A stretch of 58,056 nucleotides of DNA. Source: an uncultured Mycoplasma sp. (GTDB taxonomy: Bacteria; Bacillota_I; Bacilli_A; RF39; UBA660). Positions 30,313-39,951 of this stretch are shown one piece after another (the stretch's first letter is position 1; each line of letters opens with the position of its first letter). The stretch is from the NCBI GenBank assembly GCA_945915275.1, contig CAMEEZ010000003.1, positions 1-58,056 of the forward strand. Reading direction: 5' to 3'. The notes beneath the pieces are model-generated. The model had not been told where the DNA came from. It did not search any database and saw only the letters and a program-made list of their open reading frames with translations. Position numbers and translations under genes: made by a program.

Positions 30313-30930
30313 TTATTTTTTTTCTGTCGCATAAGCCACATTACTAACAACCGCAGCAAAATTTTTATTCATTGTTTCGTTTGGAGCGTTCTCATTAAGC
30401 CATAATCTTAATTCATATTTTACTTCTTCATCAGGATTTAAAACTCCATTAGCTAAAAGATAAGTATCTTTTATCGTAATACCCTTTTCATTGGTTAGAT
30501 TATCAAATAAATTCTCATCTATTTCTATCTTTTCTAAAGTATTTAAAATATTAGTATTAAACGTTGTATTTGTCGTTATATTCACTAAATTTGTTTTTAA
30601 ATATTCATCACTTAATGTATTATTTGCATCAGTTGTTAACGTAAGCTCATAAGTTGCTGCTATATTACAGGTGTTTTTTAGGACTACTATGTATGGAGAT
30701 AAACTTAATCCTTTTTCATCAGTTAAAGGGTAAGTATTAATTAGATTTATACTAGAGCTTTTTTCGTCAAACACATCTATATATGATAATGAGAAACATC
30801 CACTAATAATTTTATTAGAGGTTTCTTGAGAATCAGAAATTGTCCAAAGAGCATAACTAGATCCAAGAGTTGTAGAAGCTGCTAGCAATATTCCAATAAT
30901 TAATAATGAAATTTTATACCCTAACTTCAT
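30313..30930 (-). CDS. secreted/anchored hypothetical protein
   Basis: The N-terminus MKLGYKISLLIIGILLAASTTLGSSYALWTISD loosely resembles TasA/SipW-type signals (..GTYAYFTD). The remainder is Thr/Asn-rich and beta-type. Confidence 0.5.
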   Translation of the reverse strand: MKLGYKISLLIIGILLAASTTLGSSYALWTISDSQETSNKIISGCFSLSYIDVFDEKSSSINLINTYPLTDEKGLSLSPYIVVLKNTCNIAATYELTLTTDANNTLSDEYLKTNLVNITTNTTFNTNILNTLEKIEIDENLFDNLTNEKGITIKDTYLLANGVLNPDEEVKYELRLWLNENAPNETMNKNFAAVVSNVAYATEKK

Positions 30931-32454: not shown

Positions 32455-32528
32455 AATACCACTTCTTTCAGTGATTAGTATATCAAAAAAAAAGAATTAA
32501 GAAAAGTTATATATTTCTTAATCTCTTA

Positions 32529-34400
32529 CTATCTTTTATAACTATAAAACTTTTTCCCTGTTATATATGAGTAATAATTTATATAGTCATTATCTTTAGT
32601 AATAAAATACTCATGCATAAATTGAGGTTCGGAATCTACAGTGGTAATATATTTAAATGTCTCTGAATTATAAATTTTATATTCTCCGTTTTTCTCATAA
32701 GTGTATATTCTATTTATTTCATCTAAATCTAAATATACTATATTCTTATCTTCCAATAAAATTTTACCATTTTTATCAAGTAAAACATCTCTTAATCCTT
32801 TATTTGCATTTCTTACTTTCAAAAGCATTATATCTTCATTATATAATGTAACTAATGATAGTTCTTCATCTTGACTAATTGGCAATTTTATTTTATTACC
32901 ATTAGAATCATAAAATTCAGAAGTAAATTCAACGCTAAAATCATCTAATATTTTAGATGTAATTACAGCAAAATTACCGTCTGATACTATCTCTATTGTT
33001 GGATTTTCTATAATCTTAGTACCATCTTTTTTTACCACCATACTATAATTAACACCATAAAAGTTACATTCGCCATATGGATAATTATTTAATAAGTATA
33101 TATCATTACTTGATTTAGGACTTTCCCAACACTTATAAGTTGTAGGAACACCATTACTATAAATTGTTGTTGTTTTTAAATCGTCATCATAAGTCGCATA
33201 ATTATCTTTATCAATAAATTCAACATTTAATAGTGGATTTTCTGTTCTAATACTTCCATCGTCATTTACAAAATATGATGTATTACCTGAACAAATTAAT
33301 GTCCCATCTTCTAAAAATTCAAATTCACACTCAACACCATAATCATCTTGGCTTTTTTCATATTTTTTGATTCCATTTTCATATAATATGTAATTATCAT
33401 AGGAAGTGAAAATTACTTTTTCATAATTATCTCCAAAGTGAGTTTCATATTTATATTCTGGAGAAACATTTAATTTCATTATTTGTTCTTCTTTTTCCGT
33501 ATCAAAAATATAAATTTCACTAATATCCAATCTTTCTTTAAAAAACTTTATCATAATATCATTTCCCAATTTATAATTATAGTCTACAATGGGATATTGA
33601 GTTTCATCTTCTGATTTTTCTAAATAAAAAACTTCATCTAACTTTGTATTTAATCCATAATATTTATTATCTTTTAAATATAATAAGAATTTTGGGAAGA
33701 TAGAATCTGAAAATACACCGGTCACTCCAGTTAATATAACCTTTCCTTCTTTATTAAATAATTCTCCCGTATCTTTTCCTTTTTCTTTTACAAAAAAATA
33801 TCCCATATGTAAATCAACATTTACATTATCACTTGGTTCAAATATGACATTACCTTTATTTCCAAGAATTTGTATTTTTTTATTATCTTTTTGTTCGGCT
33901 TTATAAACTCCATTGTTTCCATACAATGATGAATAAATAAAATCTGTATATTGTTCACCATTTTCATCAAACATCGCATTTAAGCCATTTGGAAGACTAA
34001 TTACAAAAGTTTTAGGATTTTCTAATTTTTCTGTTAAATTATTATTGAATTCTTTATACTGTTTTGAATTTCTTTTTTTATGATTTATCATTATAAATAA
34101 TCCAACTACTAATATAACCATTATAATAGCAATTATAATAATCACTAATTTTTTGTTATATTTCTTAGGATTTTGAGAAAGACTATTTTCATCAGTTGAT
34201 ACTAAATTTTGCGTTGTATTATCAGCTTGAATAGTTGAATCAATACTATTTAAATTATTTGTATTTACATTATTTTGACTTTCTAGATTGTTATTTATTG
34301 TATTATTATTTTGAATTAAATTATTTCCGCAATGCAAGCAAAATAATGATTCATTATTGTTTAAACTACCACAATTTGGACATATTTTCATATAAATCAT
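32529..34400 (-). CDS. zinc-ribbon / single-pass membrane protein with large extracytoplasmic repeat domain
   Basis: N-terminal CPNCGSLNNNESLFCLHCGN, an Asn/Gln-rich linker, TM KLVIIIIAIIMVILVVGLFIMI, then ~500 aa of WG-like beta repeats (GVYKAEQKDNKKIQILGNKGNVIF, GELFNKEGKVIL). Confidence 0.65.
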   Translation of the reverse strand: MIYMKICPNCGSLNNNESLFCLHCGNNLIQNNNTINNNLESQNNVNTNNLNSIDSTIQADNTTQNLVSTDENSLSQNPKKYNKKLVIIIIAIIMVILVVGLFIMINHKKRNSKQYKEFNNNLTEKLENPKTFVISLPNGLNAMFDENGEQYTDFIYSSLYGNNGVYKAEQKDNKKIQILGNKGNVIFEPSDNVNVDLHMGYFFVKEKGKDTGELFNKEGKVILTGVTGVFSDSIFPKFLLYLKDNKYYGLNTKLDEVFYLEKSEDETQYPIVDYNYKLGNDIMIKFFKERLDISEIYIFDTEKEEQIMKLNVSPEYKYETHFGDNYEKVIFTSYDNYILYENGIKKYEKSQDDYGVECEFEFLEDGTLICSGNTSYFVNDDGSIRTENPLLNVEFIDKDNYATYDDDLKTTTIYSNGVPTTYKCWESPKSSNDIYLLNNYPYGECNFYGVNYSMVVKKDGTKIIENPTIEIVSDGNFAVITSKILDDFSVEFTSEFYDSNGNKIKLPISQDEELSLVTLYNEDIMLLKVRNANKGLRDVLLDKNGKILLEDKNIVYLDLDEINRIYTYEKNGEYKIYNSETFKYITTVDSEPQFMHEYFITKDNDYINYYSYITGKKFYSYKR

Positions 34401-34479
34401 CAACACTCCCTTATTATTAAGATAATTTTATCAAAACTATTATTTTTCTTCAACTAAAAAAAGGAAATTATTTTCCTTT

Positions 34480-35367
34480 TTAAAATTTATTTCCACACAT
34501 GAAACAAATTGCATCATTTTGGTCTACTTGATTACCACAATTTGGACAGAACTTTTTATTTTGAACAGGTTCTGTCATAACCGGTTTAGAATCTACAGGT
34601 TCAGTAGCAATAGGTTGTGTTACTGTAGGTTCAACAACTTGTGTTTGTTGTACTGGTTCTATTACTGGAGATTCTACTACTGAAGCTGGTTGCATATTTG
34701 TAACTTGAGATGCAGGCGTTTCAACTACTGGTGTAGGTTGAACTTCATTAACTGGAATCACTGGTGTTTCAACAACAGGAGTTGGTTGAACTTCATTAAC
34801 TTGAGTTGTTGGAACTTGTTCAACTGTTTGAAGCGGAACACTTTGTACTTCAGGTTGTAAATTATTATTTTGAACAACGCTATTATTCATTCCAACACTT
34901 TGATTATAATCCATTCCCATATTTTGGATTGGGTGATTATTATTTTGGACAACATTTTGATTTACTGTATTATTCGTTGGTATATTCCCTTGGTATTGTG
35001 CATTTCCAAAAGCTAACATTGGTAAACAAACATATGGAAATAATACCATAGCTACTCCAAATCCAGTTGATTTACCAAACTTATGAGCAAATTCAATATA
35101 AGTTTTGAACATCGCATAGATATTAGCAAATGGTATAAAATATAATAATACATACCACATTGGTAATTCTGTGATTTGAATTATAACTATAAAATTATAA
35201 ATTGGAATTAAAGCTTCCCATCCTTTTCTTCCGGCTTTTTTAAATACTTTGTACATACATACTAGTAAAAATATACAAGCTAGCATTACTATAAACCATG
35301 TAATTGTTAAACCAACTAATATATCTCCTGTGGCATTAGTAGTTTGTACTTCATAAGAATAACTCAT
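34480..35367 (-). CDS. membrane protein with Pro/Thr/Val/Gln linker and C-terminal zinc ribbon
   Basis: N-terminal 3-4 TM segments, tandem NEVQPTPVVETP repeats and C-terminal CPNCGNQVDQNDAICFMCGN. Confidence 0.65.
   Translation of the reverse strand: MSYSYEVQTTNATGDILVGLTITWFIVMLACIFLLVCMYKVFKKAGRKGWEALIPIYNFIVIIQITELPMWYVLLYFIPFANIYAMFKTYIEFAHKFGKSTGFGVAMVLFPYVCLPMLAFGNAQYQGNIPTNNTVNQNVVQNNNHPIQNMGMDYNQSVGMNNSVVQNNNLQPEVQSVPLQTVEQVPTTQVNEVQPTPVVETPVIPVNEVQPTPVVETPASQVTNMQPASVVESPVIEPVQQTQVVEPTVTQPIATEPVDSKPVMTEPVQNKKFCPNCGNQVDQNDAICFMCGNKF
34705..34800. repeat. 48-nt imperfect tandem duplication (2 copies) inside CDS
   Basis: GTTTCAACTACTGGTGTAGGTTGAACTTCATTAAC (34718-34752) and GTTTCAACAACAGGAGTTGGTTGAACTTCATTAAC (34766-34800), giving a 48-nt period. 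They encode VNEVQPTPVVETP twice. Confidence 0.8.
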
Positions 35368-35384
35368 TTCTTTTACCTCTTCTC

Positions 35385-36236
35385 TTAATTAAACATATTC
35401 ATTATTTCTCCAAGGTCAATTGATGACATTGAATTCATAATTATAAAATATCCAATAATTGCTAATATTGTAATACTAGCAACATGAAAATAAATATTAA
35501 TATCTCCATTTTCAAATTTAGTGTTTTCATTAATTAAACCTATAAACATAATAAATGAATATATTAATCCAATAACAAATACTATAATATATAGTTCTGC
35601 CCAAATTTTACCTAATATAGGAGCTAAAACGCTACATAATACTATATTCGGTAAAAAAGATGTTGCAGTTACTGCTAATAGTTTTGAAAAATTTGTTGTT
35701 TTCTTAGCAACTAAACTAGCTAAATAATACACTCCAGCAATAGCTAATATTATTACAAAATTTATTATTAAATTTTTAAATATTAATGAAACAAAATCCA
35801 AATTTTCTAATAACTCAAATTTTATAGTAGTTTGCATTTTTGTTAATTCATAATTATACTCTTTAACTACAATTATGTTTAATATTGTTGTTATTAAATT
35901 AATAAACATCATTGCAAATGCTACAATACCACTTAAGATAAATGAATTTTTTAAATCAGCTAATTTATCTTCCTCATCTTTAAAAGTTTTTACTGGCTTT
36001 ATTATTGAATTAATAATATATTTCACAAAATTTAATAATGGTTTGCTAGATTGTGATACATTATTTTGAGGTGTTGCCACTATTTGAGGATTATTAAAAT
36101 CTTGTGGTTGATTTGTAATATTATTATTCACTATTGGTGGATTATTAGGAGTAACAGCTGCTCCTAATATATTTCCACATTTAACACAAAATTTTGCGCT
36201 TTCATTATTTAAATTTCCACATTTAGAACAATTCAT
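35385..36236 (-). CDS. zinc-ribbon plus Yip1-like polytopic membrane protein
   Basis: N-terminal CSKCGNLNNESAKFCVKCGN followed by 5 TM helices. Start placed at MNCSKCG, with AGGAGA overlapping the TAG stop of the upstream SPFH gene. The track ORF extends to 36263. Confidence 0.65.
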   Translation of the reverse strand: MNCSKCGNLNNESAKFCVKCGNILGAAVTPNNPPIVNNNITNQPQDFNNPQIVATPQNNVSQSSKPLLNFVKYIINSIIKPVKTFKDEEDKLADLKNSFILSGIVAFAMMFINLITTILNIIVVKEYNYELTKMQTTIKFELLENLDFVSLIFKNLIINFVIILAIAGVYYLASLVAKKTTNFSKLLAVTATSFLPNIVLCSVLAPILGKIWAELYIIVFVIGLIYSFIMFIGLINENTKFENGDINIYFHVASITILAIIGYFIIMNSMSSIDLGEIMNMFN

Positions 36237-36244
36237 CATATCTC

Positions 36245-37501
36245 CTATAATTGTGTTCCACATTCACTACAAAATTTTCCAGTAGCTGCAGCATTACCAC
36301 AATTTGGACATCCAGTTTTAGTTACTGTTGGCTCACTTACTGGAGCAGTTGGTTCACTAGCTTCTGCAACTGCAGTAGTTGGCTCATTAACTGGTGCAGA
36401 TGGCGCACTTTGAATTCCACCAAATACTGTTCCTGGTTGAGGATCAACTGGACCTGTAGGTTGAACTGGTGTTGCTTGATTTGGGAATCCTTGAACAGCT
36501 CCCATCATATTAGCACCTTGCATTTGACCCATGCCCATACCCATGAATCCCATCATAGCACCTGCTTCATTACCTGCTGCTGTTTTCATTGCTTCAGCGC
36601 TAGCTGCAGCCATTGTTCCTGCCATATTTTGACTATAAACTTGACCCATACGAGTTGTTCTAGCAATATCAGCATCCATTTCTTGAATTATTTTTCTTGA
36701 AGCTTCTGATGCATTTACTCTTAAAGCAACATCAGAAACAATAATTCCATATTTTTGATGCCATTCATCATCTAAGATTTGATTCATTTGATCAGTTACA
36801 TCTGTTTTATAACTTTGAATTCTATTAAATGAAACATTATGCATAGTCATAATATTTGAAATTGCTTCACTTACTTTTTGAGCAAATCTGCTTTTTAAAA
36901 TATTTTGTCCACCATCTGTAACAAAAATATCATCATAAGTTAATGTATCTTTGGGATTTGCCCCAATTATGTTATTTACTAAAATAATTGGATCATTAAC
37001 TTGAATACCATATTCACCATTGTAAGTTATTTCTACACTTCCATATACTGGATCAAAAATCGTTTCAGGTTGAGCTGATCCAAATGTATTTCCTGGTATT
37101 ACCTTAGTATTAACAAAATATACTCTTTGATCTTTAGCTTCTTGACCACCATATGTAAAACGTGCTCCAATTGTTTTAAATGTGTTAATAAGACCTTGAC
37201 CTAATCCTCCAGTAAAAATGCTTGGCTCACTACTTGTATCCCAAGTATAAGTTCCAGGTTCTGCAGAAAATTCTACAATCTTCCCATTATCAATAATCAT
37301 CATTGCCATACCTTGTGGAACAGCAATTGTACTTCCATTTGATATTACTCCTTCAGAAGCATTTTTATTGCCATCACCATGCTTTACAATACCTCTTTGA
37401 ATAATAACATTATTCTCTACTTGTGGACATTCCACAAATTCTTTAAATTGATCTCCAAATCCAGATGATACTGAACTTAATGCTGCTTTAATTAATCCCA
37501 T
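36245..37501 (-). CDS. SPFH/band-7 protein with C-terminal zinc ribbon (COG4260, B. subtilis YdjI type)
   Basis: The N-terminus MGLIKAALSSVSSGFGDQFKEFVECP and the SPFH core are typical of YdjI-like 'virion core protein-like' proteins. It has a Met/Gly/Ala/Pro-rich tail and then CPNCGNAAATGKFCSECGT. Confidence 0.7.
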   Translation of the reverse strand: MGLIKAALSSVSSGFGDQFKEFVECPQVENNVIIQRGIVKHGDGNKNASEGVISNGSTIAVPQGMAMMIIDNGKIVEFSAEPGTYTWDTSSEPSIFTGGLGQGLINTFKTIGARFTYGGQEAKDQRVYFVNTKVIPGNTFGSAQPETIFDPVYGSVEITYNGEYGIQVNDPIILVNNIIGANPKDTLTYDDIFVTDGGQNILKSRFAQKVSEAISNIMTMHNVSFNRIQSYKTDVTDQMNQILDDEWHQKYGIIVSDVALRVNASEASRKIIQEMDADIARTTRMGQVYSQNMAGTMAAASAEAMKTAAGNEAGAMMGFMGMGMGQMQGANMMGAVQGFPNQATPVQPTGPVDPQPGTVFGGIQSAPSAPVNEPTTAVAEASEPTAPVSEPTVTKTGCPNCGNAAATGKFCSECGTQL

Positions 37502-37519
37502 AAATATCCTTCTTTCCTT

Positions 37520-38236
37520 CTAATAATTAATTATATTGTTTAAAGACCAAACTCTTTTTACAATTTCTTTTATTCCTGTACCACAATAAGTACATATTTT
37601 TACTCCGGTATGTTTTACTGGAGCTCCACAATTTGGACAATTAAGTCCTAAAGTTTTTATTTCAATATCAACTTTACTTTCATCTATAACATAGACATAT
37701 TCTATTCTAAAGCGATCTTGAATTTTTTTACCAATTTCACTACCCTTTTTACAGAAATACTCCAAGCTTGTTTGAAATTGTATTGTTGCAATACTTTCAC
37801 TTTTCTCATATTTACTAATTGAAGTTTTGTGAAATTTAACTGAATCGAAATGAACTTCTTCTTTTAAATCTTCTATTTTACTTTTTATCCACGAATTAAT
37901 TTTACAATTAAATTTTTTTGTTGGAATTTGTTTAGTTTCAATACTATTTAAACATTCTAAAATAGCGCTTTCTGCCATACCTTTTAATTCGTAGATATTT
38001 AAATCTGGATAATCTTTTTTTATTTTTGATAAATATAAATTTTCCATACTTGAAATTGATTTGGGTGTTTCACTAGCTAATATTTTGCTTTTTTCAATTG
38101 CTTCTTTTAAATCAGATGTTCCAAAATATTTGTTAATAAACTGTCTTAATTTAATCTTTATGAAAAAATAAAAAGCTAAAATTATTCCGATTATCAAAAA
38201 TATTAATACTAAATTAATTATTAATTTTGTAGTCAT
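37520..38236 (-). CDS. TM + Tim44/NTF2-like domain + C-terminal zinc ribbon protein
   Basis: TM LIINLVLIFLIIGIILAFYFFI, a ~150-aa alpha+beta domain and CPNCGAPVKHTGVKICTYCGT. The Tim44-like assignment is only by pattern. Confidence 0.55.
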   Translation of the reverse strand: MTTKLIINLVLIFLIIGIILAFYFFIKIKLRQFINKYFGTSDLKEAIEKSKILASETPKSISSMENLYLSKIKKDYPDLNIYELKGMAESAILECLNSIETKQIPTKKFNCKINSWIKSKIEDLKEEVHFDSVKFHKTSISKYEKSESIATIQFQTSLEYFCKKGSEIGKKIQDRFRIEYVYVIDESKVDIEIKTLGLNCPNCGAPVKHTGVKICTYCGTGIKEIVKRVWSLNNIINY

Positions 38237-38363
38237 TAATACTTGCCTATAGCATTCCCACTTCCTTTACATAGAGATTTAAATTCAATATACACTCCTA
38301 TTCTATTAAAATTATATCATATTTATAAAAATATAAAATAATTTTGTAAATGATTTTACGTAA

Positions 38364-38390
38364 ACAAAAAAAGTTGTTACAAAACAACTT
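38364..38390 (-). terminator. serS intrinsic terminator
   Basis: AAGTTGTT-ACAA-AACAACTT abuts the serS stop. On the minus strand it is followed by TTTTTGT. Confidence 0.7.
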
Positions 38391-38391
38391 T

Positions 38392-39669
38392 TTATTTAAT
38401 AACTTCTAATCCTCCCATATAAGGTCTTAATGCTACTGGAATTTTTATACTTCCATCTTCTTGATAATTATTTTCTAGAAACGCTATTAATCCTCTTGGA
38501 GTAGCTAAAACTGTATTATTAAGAGTGGATACATAATAGTTTTCTTTTTCACCCTTAGCTCTAATTCCTAAGCGCCTTGCCTGAGCATCTCCTAATGTTG
38601 AACAAGATCCAACTTCAAAATATTTCTTTTGTCTTGGACTCCATGCTTCAATATCACATGATTTAACTTTTAAATCTGCTAAATCTCCAGAACAACATTC
38701 TAATGTTCTTACAGGAATATCTAAACTTCTAAAGAATTCAACAGTGTATTTCCACATTTTTTCATACCATTCCATAGCTTCTTCTGGTTTACATAGAACT
38801 ACCATTTCTTGTTTTTCAAATTGATGAACACGATAGATTCCTCTTTCTTCTAGTCCGTGAGCTCCAACTTCTTTTCTAAAGCATGGAGAGTAACTTGTCA
38901 TTGTAATGGGTAGAGTTTCTTCTTTAATTAATTGTCCTTTGTATCTTCCAATCATAGAATGTTCACTAGTTCCAATTAAGAATAAATCCTCACCTTCAAT
39001 TTTATACATCATCGCATCCATTTCAGCAAAAGACATTACTCCATCAACAACATCTCCTCTAATCATGAATGGTGGAACACAATAAGTAAAACCTTTATCA
39101 ATCATAAAATCTCTTGCATATGATAACATTGCTGAATGAAGTCTCGCTATATTTCCAGTTAAATAATAAAAGCCATTACCACTTACTCTACCTGCGCTCT
39201 CTTTGTCTAGTCCAGATAATTTTTCACAAATATCAGCATGATATGGGATTTCATATTCTGGAACTATAGGTTCTCCAAAACGTTCATTTTCCACATTTTC
39301 ACTATCATCTTTTCCAACAGGAACTGATGCATCTATGATATTTGGTATTTTCATCATATTTTCTCGAAGTTCTAATCTTAATTTTTCTTCTTCTTCTTCA
39401 ATAGTTTTTAATTCTTCATTAATATTTACAACTTCTTGTTTCTTTTCATTAGCTTTATCAATTTCCTTATTTCTAAATAGAGCACCAATTTCATCACTTA
39501 TCTTATTTCTTTGACTACGAAGTTCATCGCCATGTAATTTTAAATTTCTAATACTTTCATCTTGTTCAAGAATTTCGTCTAATAATAATATTTTATCTTC
39601 TTGAAATTTCTTTTTTAAATTTTCAATAACTAATTCTTTATTTTCTCTAATTAATTTAATATCTATCAT
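38392..39669 (-). CDS. serS: seryl-tRNA synthetase
   Basis: N-terminal coiled-coil arm (MIDIKLIRENKE...). Class II motifs FRKEVGAHGLEERGIYRVHQFEKQE and GSCSTLGDAQARRLGIR. A Ser T-box lies upstream. Confidence 0.95.
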   Translation of the reverse strand: MIDIKLIRENKELVIENLKKKFQEDKILLLDEILEQDESIRNLKLHGDELRSQRNKISDEIGALFRNKEIDKANEKKQEVVNINEELKTIEEEEEKLRLELRENMMKIPNIIDASVPVGKDDSENVENERFGEPIVPEYEIPYHADICEKLSGLDKESAGRVSGNGFYYLTGNIARLHSAMLSYARDFMIDKGFTYCVPPFMIRGDVVDGVMSFAEMDAMMYKIEGEDLFLIGTSEHSMIGRYKGQLIKEETLPITMTSYSPCFRKEVGAHGLEERGIYRVHQFEKQEMVVLCKPEEAMEWYEKMWKYTVEFFRSLDIPVRTLECCSGDLADLKVKSCDIEAWSPRQKKYFEVGSCSTLGDAQARRLGIRAKGEKENYYVSTLNNTVLATPRGLIAFLENNYQEDGSIKIPVALRPYMGGLEVIK

Positions 39670-39671
39670 AT

Positions 39672-39850
39672 TAACCTCTTTCTAAAATAAAAAGGATAAT
39701 ACCTTAGGAGTCATAAAGACGGTACCATCCTATTATTCGCTTAATTTTTTGATAACGGAATCACCCGGAGTTTTTTGACTCATTTGAAAAGTAGATTCAT
39801 TAATAATAATTCTTAGTTTTCACCATCCACTAAGTCTCTATGAAACATCT
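39672..39850 (-). promoter_or_regulatory. T-box leader, Ser specifier (UCU)
   Basis: Minus strand reads AGAGACTTAGTGGATGGTGAAAAC (stem I), ...GAATCTACTTTTC... with TCT at 39793-39795 followed by A, the T-box core TAGGATGGTACCG, and a terminator plus TTTTTATTTT before the serS ATG. Confidence 0.85.
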
Positions 39851-39951
39851 TATTAATTACTATTCTTTTCGCTTCATTTTATAAGTTTAATATAACATTA
39901 ATCTAATATTTTTTCAATTATTTTTTATAAAAAAAGAGTTTTTTCAAACTC

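Follow-up and report, generated by a model that had tools for sequence, protein, structure and literature searches.

SPFH scaffolds organise membrane microdomains, and in Bacillus subtilis the membrane localisation of one such protein, YdjI, requires the membrane proteins YdjG and YdjH. To our knowledge, the membrane targeting of a soluble YdjI-type SPFH protein is known only for this species. Here we describe a gene for a YdjI-type SPFH protein and its neighbours in a 58,056-nucleotide stretch of DNA, hereafter the window, from an uncultured Mycoplasma sp. of the GTDB lineage UBA660 (GenBank assembly GCA_945915275.1, contig CAMEEZ010000003.1, positions 1 to 58,056 of the forward strand). Five consecutive genes of the window, numbered 1 to 5 in their direction of reading, each encode a protein with one short zinc ribbon. 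The cluster is a YdjI-type SPFH module free of PspA and TPM, with a Tim44-like, ribbon-bearing partner, and it is locally expanded. The reading we favour, with slightly better than even confidence, is that genes 1 and 2 are a conserved anchored-scaffold pair and that genes 3 to 5 are lineage-specific additions, perhaps local partners or clients of the scaffold. The genes and their ribbons are as follows (aa, amino acids; TM, transmembrane).

37520..38236, minus strand: gene 1, 238 aa; N-terminal TM helix (aa 5-23), predicted cytoplasmic Tim44/NTF2-like domain, zinc ribbon (aa 200-218)
37583..37639, minus strand: gene 1 ribbon, CPNCGAPVKHTGVKICTYC, of the CPNCGA...C.YC type; also aligns with the first ribbon of a YdjG-like protein
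36245..37501, minus strand: gene 2, 418 aa; YdjI/SamI-type SPFH protein with Band_7_1, Met/Gly-rich segment, linker and C-terminal ribbon (aa 398-414)
36260..36310, minus strand: gene 2 ribbon, CPNCGNAAATGKFCSEC
35385..36236, minus strand: gene 3, 283 aa; N-terminal zinc ribbon (aa 3-20), N/P/Q-rich linker, Yip1 domain with five TM helices
36177..36230, minus strand: gene 3 ribbon, CSKCGNLNNESAKFCVKC
34480..35367, minus strand: gene 4, 295 aa; DUF5684 (three TM helices detected), ~140-aa V/P/Q/N/T-rich linker, C-terminal ribbon (aa 274-291)
34495..34548, minus strand: gene 4 ribbon, CPNCGNQVDQNDAICFMC
32529..34400, minus strand: gene 5, 623 aa; N-terminal ribbon, Asn-rich linker, one TM helix, ~520-aa all-beta ectodomain
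34329..34382, minus strand: gene 5 ribbon, CPNCGSLNNNESLFCLHC; aa 7-24 counted from the ATG at 34400 (aa 4-21 in an alternative 620-aa numbering)

The architecture of gene 2 is that of YdjI/SamI in B. subtilis (PMC8581546; bioRxiv 10.64898/2026.02.06.704340). In the pspA-ydjGHI (pspA-samGHI) system, as in the window, the SPFH protein combines Band_7_1, a low-complexity or Met/Gly-rich segment and one or more C-terminal ribbons with the lack of a TM segment, its gene adjoins that of a membrane-anchored ribbon protein with an alpha+beta domain, and by analogy a membrane-proximal scaffold role would be expected in both. The window cluster differs in having no nearby PspA/IM30 or TPM (YdjH) gene, as neither PspA/IM30 nor TPM_phosphatase (YdjH/SamH) was found among the five genes or 10 other mid-size open reading frames (ORFs) of the window (not every ORF was scanned), and in adding three more ribbon-tagged membrane genes. 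The anchors differ as well: in YdjG a pair of ribbons stands at the N-terminus and a TM helix at the C-terminus (PMC11237479), with a domain, classed as NTF2-like, that is unrelated to that of gene 1, whereas gene 1 has an N-terminal TM helix, a Tim44-like domain and one ribbon. An earlier annotation of this DNA, made from its letters alone (the sequence-only reading), had drawn the YdjGHI analogy and pointed out that PspA is absent nearby, and was sound in both. Other SPFH genes are likewise paired with a dedicated membrane-protein gene (HflK/C-FtsH, QmcA-YbbJ/NfeD, FloA-NfeD), but there the SPFH protein (HflK/C, QmcA, FloA) is itself anchored by a TM segment or hairpin and is partnered by NfeD or a protease, both of which the window cluster lacks.

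Genes 1 and 2 are the only widely conserved unit of the cluster, a two-gene unit. Gene 2 matches Band_7_1 (PF13421) with an E-value of 5e-16 (59.4 bits against a Pfam cutoff of 24), and a simple hydropathy scan (not a dedicated predictor) detected no hydrophobic segment above threshold, which predicts a protein with no intrinsic membrane anchor. An A/G/P/T/M-rich linker (aa 301-397) leads into the C-terminal ribbon, which is invariant in an alignment of 15 homologues; 6806 homologues were found in all, and a PDB sequence search with the SPFH protein returned no relative. A Met/Gly-rich stretch at about aa 313-330 is also conserved and is recognisable in an Enterococcus YdjI-like protein (GFVGMGMGM).

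The TM helix of gene 1 is N-terminal, with positive residues on its C-terminal side. Gene 1 itself has no direct Pfam match at E<0.1. Its family aligns with the Tim44 (PF04280)-positive neighbours of SPFH genes in other species (hhalign probability 98.7%, E 3e-16), and a Foldseek search with its AlphaFold2 (AF2) model (pLDDT 80.5) retrieved the mitoribosomal protein mL45, which is Tim44-like (E 4e-4), and, at about 1e-2, the Tim44 C-domain (2cw9) and ARC6 (NTF2-like ARC6/PARC6). Profile-profile comparison and structure search together uphold the Tim44/NTF2-like assignment made in the sequence-only reading, and its domain assignments for all five genes hold (Pfam, profile comparison, structure search and family-level WG matches). 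The ribbon of gene 1 is inserted just ahead of the last beta-strand of the Tim44-like domain.

To see which neighbours recur, we surveyed the surroundings of SPFH-ribbon homologues of 48-80% identity in 80 species-level loci (loci are given below by label, L001 onwards). Single-sequence BLAST of genes 3 to 5 against them found almost nothing, and custom hidden Markov models (HMMs) were built instead. Relative to SPFH, 27% of the ORFs at position -1 bear a ribbon, as do 14% of those at +1 and 13% of those at +2, against 3.3% beyond two genes (Fisher odds ratio 5.2, p 1e-11, not phylogeny-corrected). Of the 44 ribbon ORFs no more than two genes away from SPFH, the HMMs classify 38 as Tim44-like-ribbon proteins, which are present in 26/80 loci. 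Other ribbon ORFs are as frequent near SPFH (6/291, 2.1%) as further away (22/1004, 2.2%), and so there is no ribbon enrichment beside SPFH across species other than that of the Tim44 type. A gene of the gene 1 type lies directly upstream of SPFH in L002, L003, L005-8, L012, L030, L035, L061 and L083-L089. Among 132 SPFH neighbours searched with Pfam, Tim44 (15) and DUF5684 (4) were the sole recurrent membrane families, and neither PspA nor TPM was recurrent. The co-conservation with SPFH that the sequence-only reading looked for in relatives is therefore real for the Tim44-like-ribbon gene and fails across species for the other three non-SPFH genes.

The SPFH protein itself lacks a ribbon in only four related species. 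The C-terminal ribbon has been lost from these homologues (L013, L014, L015, L021), whose last residues form an acidic proline-rich '...ETPAE' tail; the protein encoded upstream of them is apparently RNase Y, judging by its size (~520 aa, one TM helix) and four RNase_Y_N matches among the neighbours.

Two reference loci, obtained by tblastn of plasmid records, illustrate different partners. That of Enterococcus gallinarum (L090) encodes, in this order, an SPFH protein with Band_7_1 and two ribbons (31% identical to gene 2, E 2e-31), a 374-aa YdjG-like protein, whose two N-terminal ribbons and C-terminal TM helix fit the layout reported for YdjG (PMC11237479), and a TPM-domain protein; this corresponds to a YdjI-G-H layout, and no PspA gene is adjacent. 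In Monoglobus pectinilyticus (NZ_OY725743, Clostridia) RefSeq annotates a ribbon-bearing 'TIM44-like domain-containing protein' directly upstream of SPFH, and this protein matches the partner family with an hhalign probability of 99.95%. The pairs of Monoglobus and of gut Bacilli metagenome-assembled genomes (MAGs) share with the window the two-gene order and a ribbon placed ahead of the last Tim44-like strand, but they have no Yip1, DUF5684 or WG-repeat genes attached. Compared with these partners, gene 1 belongs to a shorter, divergent subfamily below Pfam detection of Tim44, and the extracellular, Gly/Ser-rich segment with which the forms of 280-330 aa begin is missing from it. As the Tim44-like family aligns with the YdjG-like protein through the ribbon only, Band_7_1-ribbon proteins have two or more kinds of partner, YdjG with TPM being one and the Tim44-like-ribbon protein, as in the window, another. 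The idea that gene 1 is a rearranged YdjG homologue was rejected on the same alignment; its anchor would be analogous, not homologous, to YdjG. In the literature searched, no paper describes the Tim44-like/SPFH pair, and searches for DUF5684 and COG4260/PF13421 gave nothing on the arrangement.

The wider cluster is real. Its five co-directional ORFs are separated by gaps of 18, 8, 17 and 79 nucleotides (nt), and each protein has one CxxCG-x(8-10)-CxxCG ribbon with the sequence first reported for it. In a six-frame search (ORFs of at least 60 aa) the pattern C..C-x(5-20)-C..C has exactly five matches in the whole window, all within genes 1-5. With ~43 real genes in the window (47 ORFs of 100 aa or more, from which four embedded antisense ORFs were subtracted), the chance that five tagged genes would be consecutive is ~4e-5 (39/C(43,5)). 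The local clustering is therefore non-random. The alternative named in the sequence-only reading, that the ribbons are generic tags, is borne out across species, where those not of the Tim44 type are unenriched beside SPFH, and not within the window. Pfam matches of the ribbons to Zn_Ribbon_1, Zn_ribbon_3 and DZR range from E 1e-5 to 3e-2, mostly under the gathering score, which is expected of ribbons of only ~20 residues. Such scores would also suit an explanation by chance cysteine patterns, or by a cluster produced through ORF calling, but the confinement of the motifs to genes 1-5, the homologues found for every one of the five ORFs, and the invariance of the four Cys and flanking Gly across orthologues leave that explanation effectively refuted.

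The products had been described as five membrane proteins. Four are integral membrane proteins; the SPFH protein has no predicted TM segment, so the set consists of these four and one soluble or peripheral protein. All five ribbons are predicted to be cytoplasmic by a simple positive-inside reading. Four of them sit on flexible low-complexity leashes, and that of gene 1 lies instead inside a domain. The ribbon of gene 4 is 96% conserved among orthologues, whose TM domains reach 60-73% and linkers 25-67% identity, and the ribbons of genes 1, 2 and 3 are conserved to a degree equal to or above that of their own domains. The ribbons are under purifying selection and are functional modules, most likely for cytoplasmic protein-protein contact. 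Each has its own signature, and they are therefore not recent copies of one another.

Genes 3 to 5 belong to three different families. Gene 3 is a Yip1 protein (PF04893, E 1.2e-9, 38.7 bits against a cutoff of 28.6) with five TM helices, and its ribbon matches Zn_Ribbon_1 at E 1e-5. Its start at 36236 (MNCSKCG) is preferred over an upstream ATG at 36263 because the ribbon of its orthologues begins at residue 3; the orthologues in L083-L086 are 42-97% identical and all have the ribbon. Gene 4 matches DUF5684 (PF18936, E 6.9e-21, 75.1 bits against 27.4), a family that adjoins SPFH also in L001, L004, L006, L019, L081 and L154. The start of gene 5 at 34400 lies 5 nt downstream of GGGAG. Close homologues of gene 5 number only 2 among 5.8e9 proteins, and full-length relatives ~15 among 1.84e9 representatives. 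Gene 5 itself has no match to WG_beta_rep (PF14903) at E<1, and 11 of 17 members of its family do (best E 3.6e-10), which supports at family level both the beta-repeat ectodomain proposed from the sequence and its assignment to diverged WG repeats. Its AF2 model, built on a three-sequence alignment, is all-beta but at pLDDT 42.6 too poor to judge the fold.

The closest public relatives are MAGs labelled as uncultured gut 'Bacilli bacterium', 'Tenericutes' and 'Clostridium sp. CAG', labels that correspond to RF39-like Bacilli. The close-relative loci L001 and L081-L086 were found by exact-protein look-ups, and L006 came from the 80-locus survey. These loci and the more distant L087-L089 compare with the window as follows (percentages, SPFH identity).

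L086, 96%: same five genes, identical order, all five ribbons
L085, 87%: genes 1-4; contig stops ~60 nt past gene 4
L083, 85%: gene 1, SPFH, Yip1, large protein, DUF5684; large protein of 648 aa, no ribbon, 26% identical to gene 5
L084, 82%: order as in L083; large protein of 598 aa, no ribbon
L081 and L082, 82%: serS, 97-aa ORF, SPFH, DUF5684-ribbon, miaB
L001, 80%: as L081, except that the ORF called between serS and SPFH is shorter
L087-L089, 70-73%: only the gene 1-like gene and SPFH kept
L006, 69%: gene 1, SPFH, 157-aa protein (in the place of Yip1), DUF5684-ribbon, miaB

Genes 3 to 5 are found with SPFH only within a narrow clade, whose SPFH proteins have 82% identity or more, and the five-gene arrangement is local, not a conserved system. 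Of what the sequence-only reading proposed for relatives, the gene families recur in L083-L085 and all five ribbons in one close relative, L086; the five-ribbon set is not a conserved module: order and content vary, and ribbons are absent from DUF5684, Yip1 or large-ectodomain neighbours of SPFH in L004, L019, L010, L083 and L084. For the large protein of L084, the alignment to gene 5 is limited to 85 residues in the C-terminal part, at 36% identity. Compared with L086, a ~1.2-kb block (window 35500-36700), made up of the SPFH 3' end with its linker and ribbon and the whole ribbon-Yip1 gene, is 98-100% identical in nucleotides, and the flanking cluster genes are 65-92% identical; at protein level the values are 96-97% and 66-80%. 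This looks like recent homologous exchange within the cluster.

A differently composed cluster, also rich in ribbons, is found in L004 (8600-15900; SPFH 71%). Its genes encode, in order, a Tim44-like-ribbon protein, an SPFH protein with two ribbons, a ribbonless DUF5684 protein, a TM protein of 246 aa, a ribbonless gene 5-like protein of 537 aa and two further ribbon proteins, one of 405 aa with the layout ribbon-TM-ectodomain and one of 170 aa with the layout ribbon-2TM.

Candidate transcription signals around the cluster are the following.

38366..38393, minus strand: terminator-like hairpin and T-run directly after serS (-9.3 kcal/mol, z -2.5), parting serS from the cluster
38311..38319, minus strand: extended -10 element, TGATATAAT, upstream of gene 1; candidate promoter, from sequence
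34456..34481, minus strand: weak terminator-like hairpin and T-run over the gene 4 stop codon (-7.9 kcal/mol, z -1.0)
34453-34425, minus strand: promoter-like site, TTGAAG-17-TAAAAT with TG, followed by the GGGAG ribosome-binding site of gene 5
32485..32527, minus strand: terminator-like hairpin and T-run after gene 5, upstream of miaB (-8.8 kcal/mol, z -1.5)

The hairpins were read by eye and then folded separately, and two of the three are weak; a scan for sigma-70 and terminator consensus was uninformative at the ~26% GC of the window (70 sites against 66 expected). The gaps between genes 1 to 4 are short (8-18 nt), with no terminator between genes 2, 3 and 4. Genes 1-4 are likely to be one transcription unit, with the TGATATAAT element as its likely promoter, and gene 5 is likely to be separate or made by read-through. 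The single transcript across all five genes that was originally envisaged is doubtful, as a hairpin and a promoter-like site precede gene 5. Rfam matched two tRNAs in the whole window and no RNA element within the cluster, and no T-box was found upstream of serS at the gathering threshold.

The sequence-only reading had gone further and suggested a dedicated five-component module, an envelope-stress scaffold in which the ribbons are a common docking or oligomerisation code and gene 5 is the sensor. Besides the placement of the window's five ribbons in five consecutive genes and the leashes that carry four of them, this explanation has on its side the identical five-gene, five-ribbon layout of L086 and the persistence of the ribbons of genes 2, 3 and 4 while the remainder diverges to 41-55% identity. 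A conceptual precedent is the short SHOCT tag, whose commonest fusion partners are Band_7_1 proteins and for which a role in assembling membrane complexes has been proposed (PMC3581485; PMC11237479). Like the ribbon, SHOCT is a short terminal module shared by SPFH proteins and many unrelated membrane proteins, but its fold is helical and metal-free and none is present in the cluster, so that the analogy is one of logic only. Against such a module, however, non-Tim44 ribbons are no commoner near SPFH than elsewhere, the large protein of L083 and L084 does without a ribbon, as do all but 6 of the 17 gene 5 family members, and DUF5684 and Yip1 proteins that adjoin SPFH lack ribbons in L004, L019 and L010. 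In the reverse direction, among 66 metagenome loci with DUF5684 homologues, an SPFH gene lies within three genes of DUF5684 in 1/34 informative loci. The hairpin and promoter-like site set gene 5 apart, and no regulator or kinase gene is adjacent to relay a signal. We consider a dedicated module of this kind unlikely.

The opposite possibility is that genes 3-5 are functionally unlinked to the SPFH pair, being fast-evolving small membrane or surface proteins that carry a generic, widespread tag and happen to occupy a recombination-prone slot before miaB. The slot holds 1 to 4 genes among close relatives, the block shared with L086 indicates recent recombination, and divergence among relatives is steep: SPFH keeps 82-87% identity, genes 3 and 4 only 41-55% and gene 5-like proteins 25%. 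About 90 proteins of 103-979 aa, unrelated in other respects, match the N-terminal ribbon-linker-TM module of gene 5, and DUF5684 occurs chiefly as two paralogues, of which one has a ribbon and the other has none, with no SPFH nearby. A divergent pair of this kind, a 127-aa protein without and a 178-184-aa protein with a ribbon, recurs on human-gut metagenome contigs (L094-L126). This explanation has to contend, however, with the close spacing of genes 1 to 4, with the low probability that five tagged genes fall together by chance, and with the recurrence of DUF5684 directly after SPFH both in the serS-miaB context and in other flanking contexts (L004, L019), as well as that of Yip1 after SPFH in L010. 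We hold it to be rather doubtful.

The favoured reading, a conserved pair with local additions, takes a position between the two. We infer that the Tim44-like-ribbon protein of gene 1 most likely recruits the oligomeric, soluble SPFH-ribbon protein to the inner face of the membrane, a step suggested by analogy with B. subtilis YdjGHI and by general SPFH biology. Between SPFH and miaB, the variable slot has on this reading gained the Yip1, DUF5684 and WG-repeat genes in one narrow lineage of low-GC, uncultured gut Bacilli, and each of their products has a low-complexity leash with a generic cytoplasmic tag of the zinc_ribbon_2/DZR type. Genes 3 and 4 probably share a transcript with genes 1-2 and are plausible lineage-specific partners or clients of the scaffold, and gene 5 looks like its own transcription unit. 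The ribbons may dock on the SPFH assembly.

Several observations weigh against this reading. The Tim44-like partner family and the Enterococcus YdjG-like protein align over 30 ribbon columns only (hhalign probability 90%), and the transfer of function from YdjG is therefore by analogy. In ~35 species the SPFH-ribbon gene has no ribbon-bearing neighbour, which means that the partner is dispensable or has its gene elsewhere. DUF5684-ribbon proteins often occur at a distance from any SPFH gene. Finally, the tie of genes 3-5 to the scaffold rests on operon structure and on synteny in close relatives, which shared ancestry may explain.

In the ~35 loci without a ribbon neighbour (L020, L058 and others, from related gut Bacilli), the SPFH-ribbon gene directly follows jag-mnmE-mnmG-rsmG-parB, a typically origin-proximal set. 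Elsewhere in the window, a 205-aa ORF downstream of miaB (30313-30930, minus strand) has an N-terminal TM helix followed by 'SSYALWT' and no Pfam match; downstream of miaB in L006 there are paralogues of it (203, 489 and 562 aa), and L055 has similar 'TSYAWYS' proteins. We presume that it might belong to a SipW/TasA-like signal-peptide family. On the other side of the cluster, close relatives have a BspA-type LRR_5 gene (532-535 aa) between a dcuC-like transporter gene and serS (L081 3377-4984), and the window has only a 282-nt gap there (39670-39951). A defence-island reading was dropped, as PADLOC defence-system models gave no meaningful match to the cluster (the sole result was one 13.5-bit DruE fragment); NCBIfam gave nothing useful for any of the five proteins.

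A broader idea, which we regard as quite unlikely, is that the ribbon acts as a portable address tag, by which a soluble SPFH-ribbon oligomer, held at the membrane by a Tim44-like-ribbon protein, would capture any membrane protein that carries a matching ribbon on a flexible cytoplasmic leash. If true, lineages could rewire the clients of their SPFH microdomains by gaining or losing ribbons, and this would explain both the on-off ribbons of Yip1, DUF5684 and WG-repeat proteins and the spread of the tag among bacterial membrane proteins. The locus, with four or five ribbon proteins beside a ribbon-bearing scaffold, would be a convenient one for testing tag-mediated recruitment. The Tim44-like protein with its inserted ribbon points to a second, apparently undescribed anchoring partner of YdjI-type SPFH proteins, with neither PspA nor TPM in cis, and the Tim44-like/SPFH pair spans uncultured low-GC gut Bacilli and at least one species of Clostridia.

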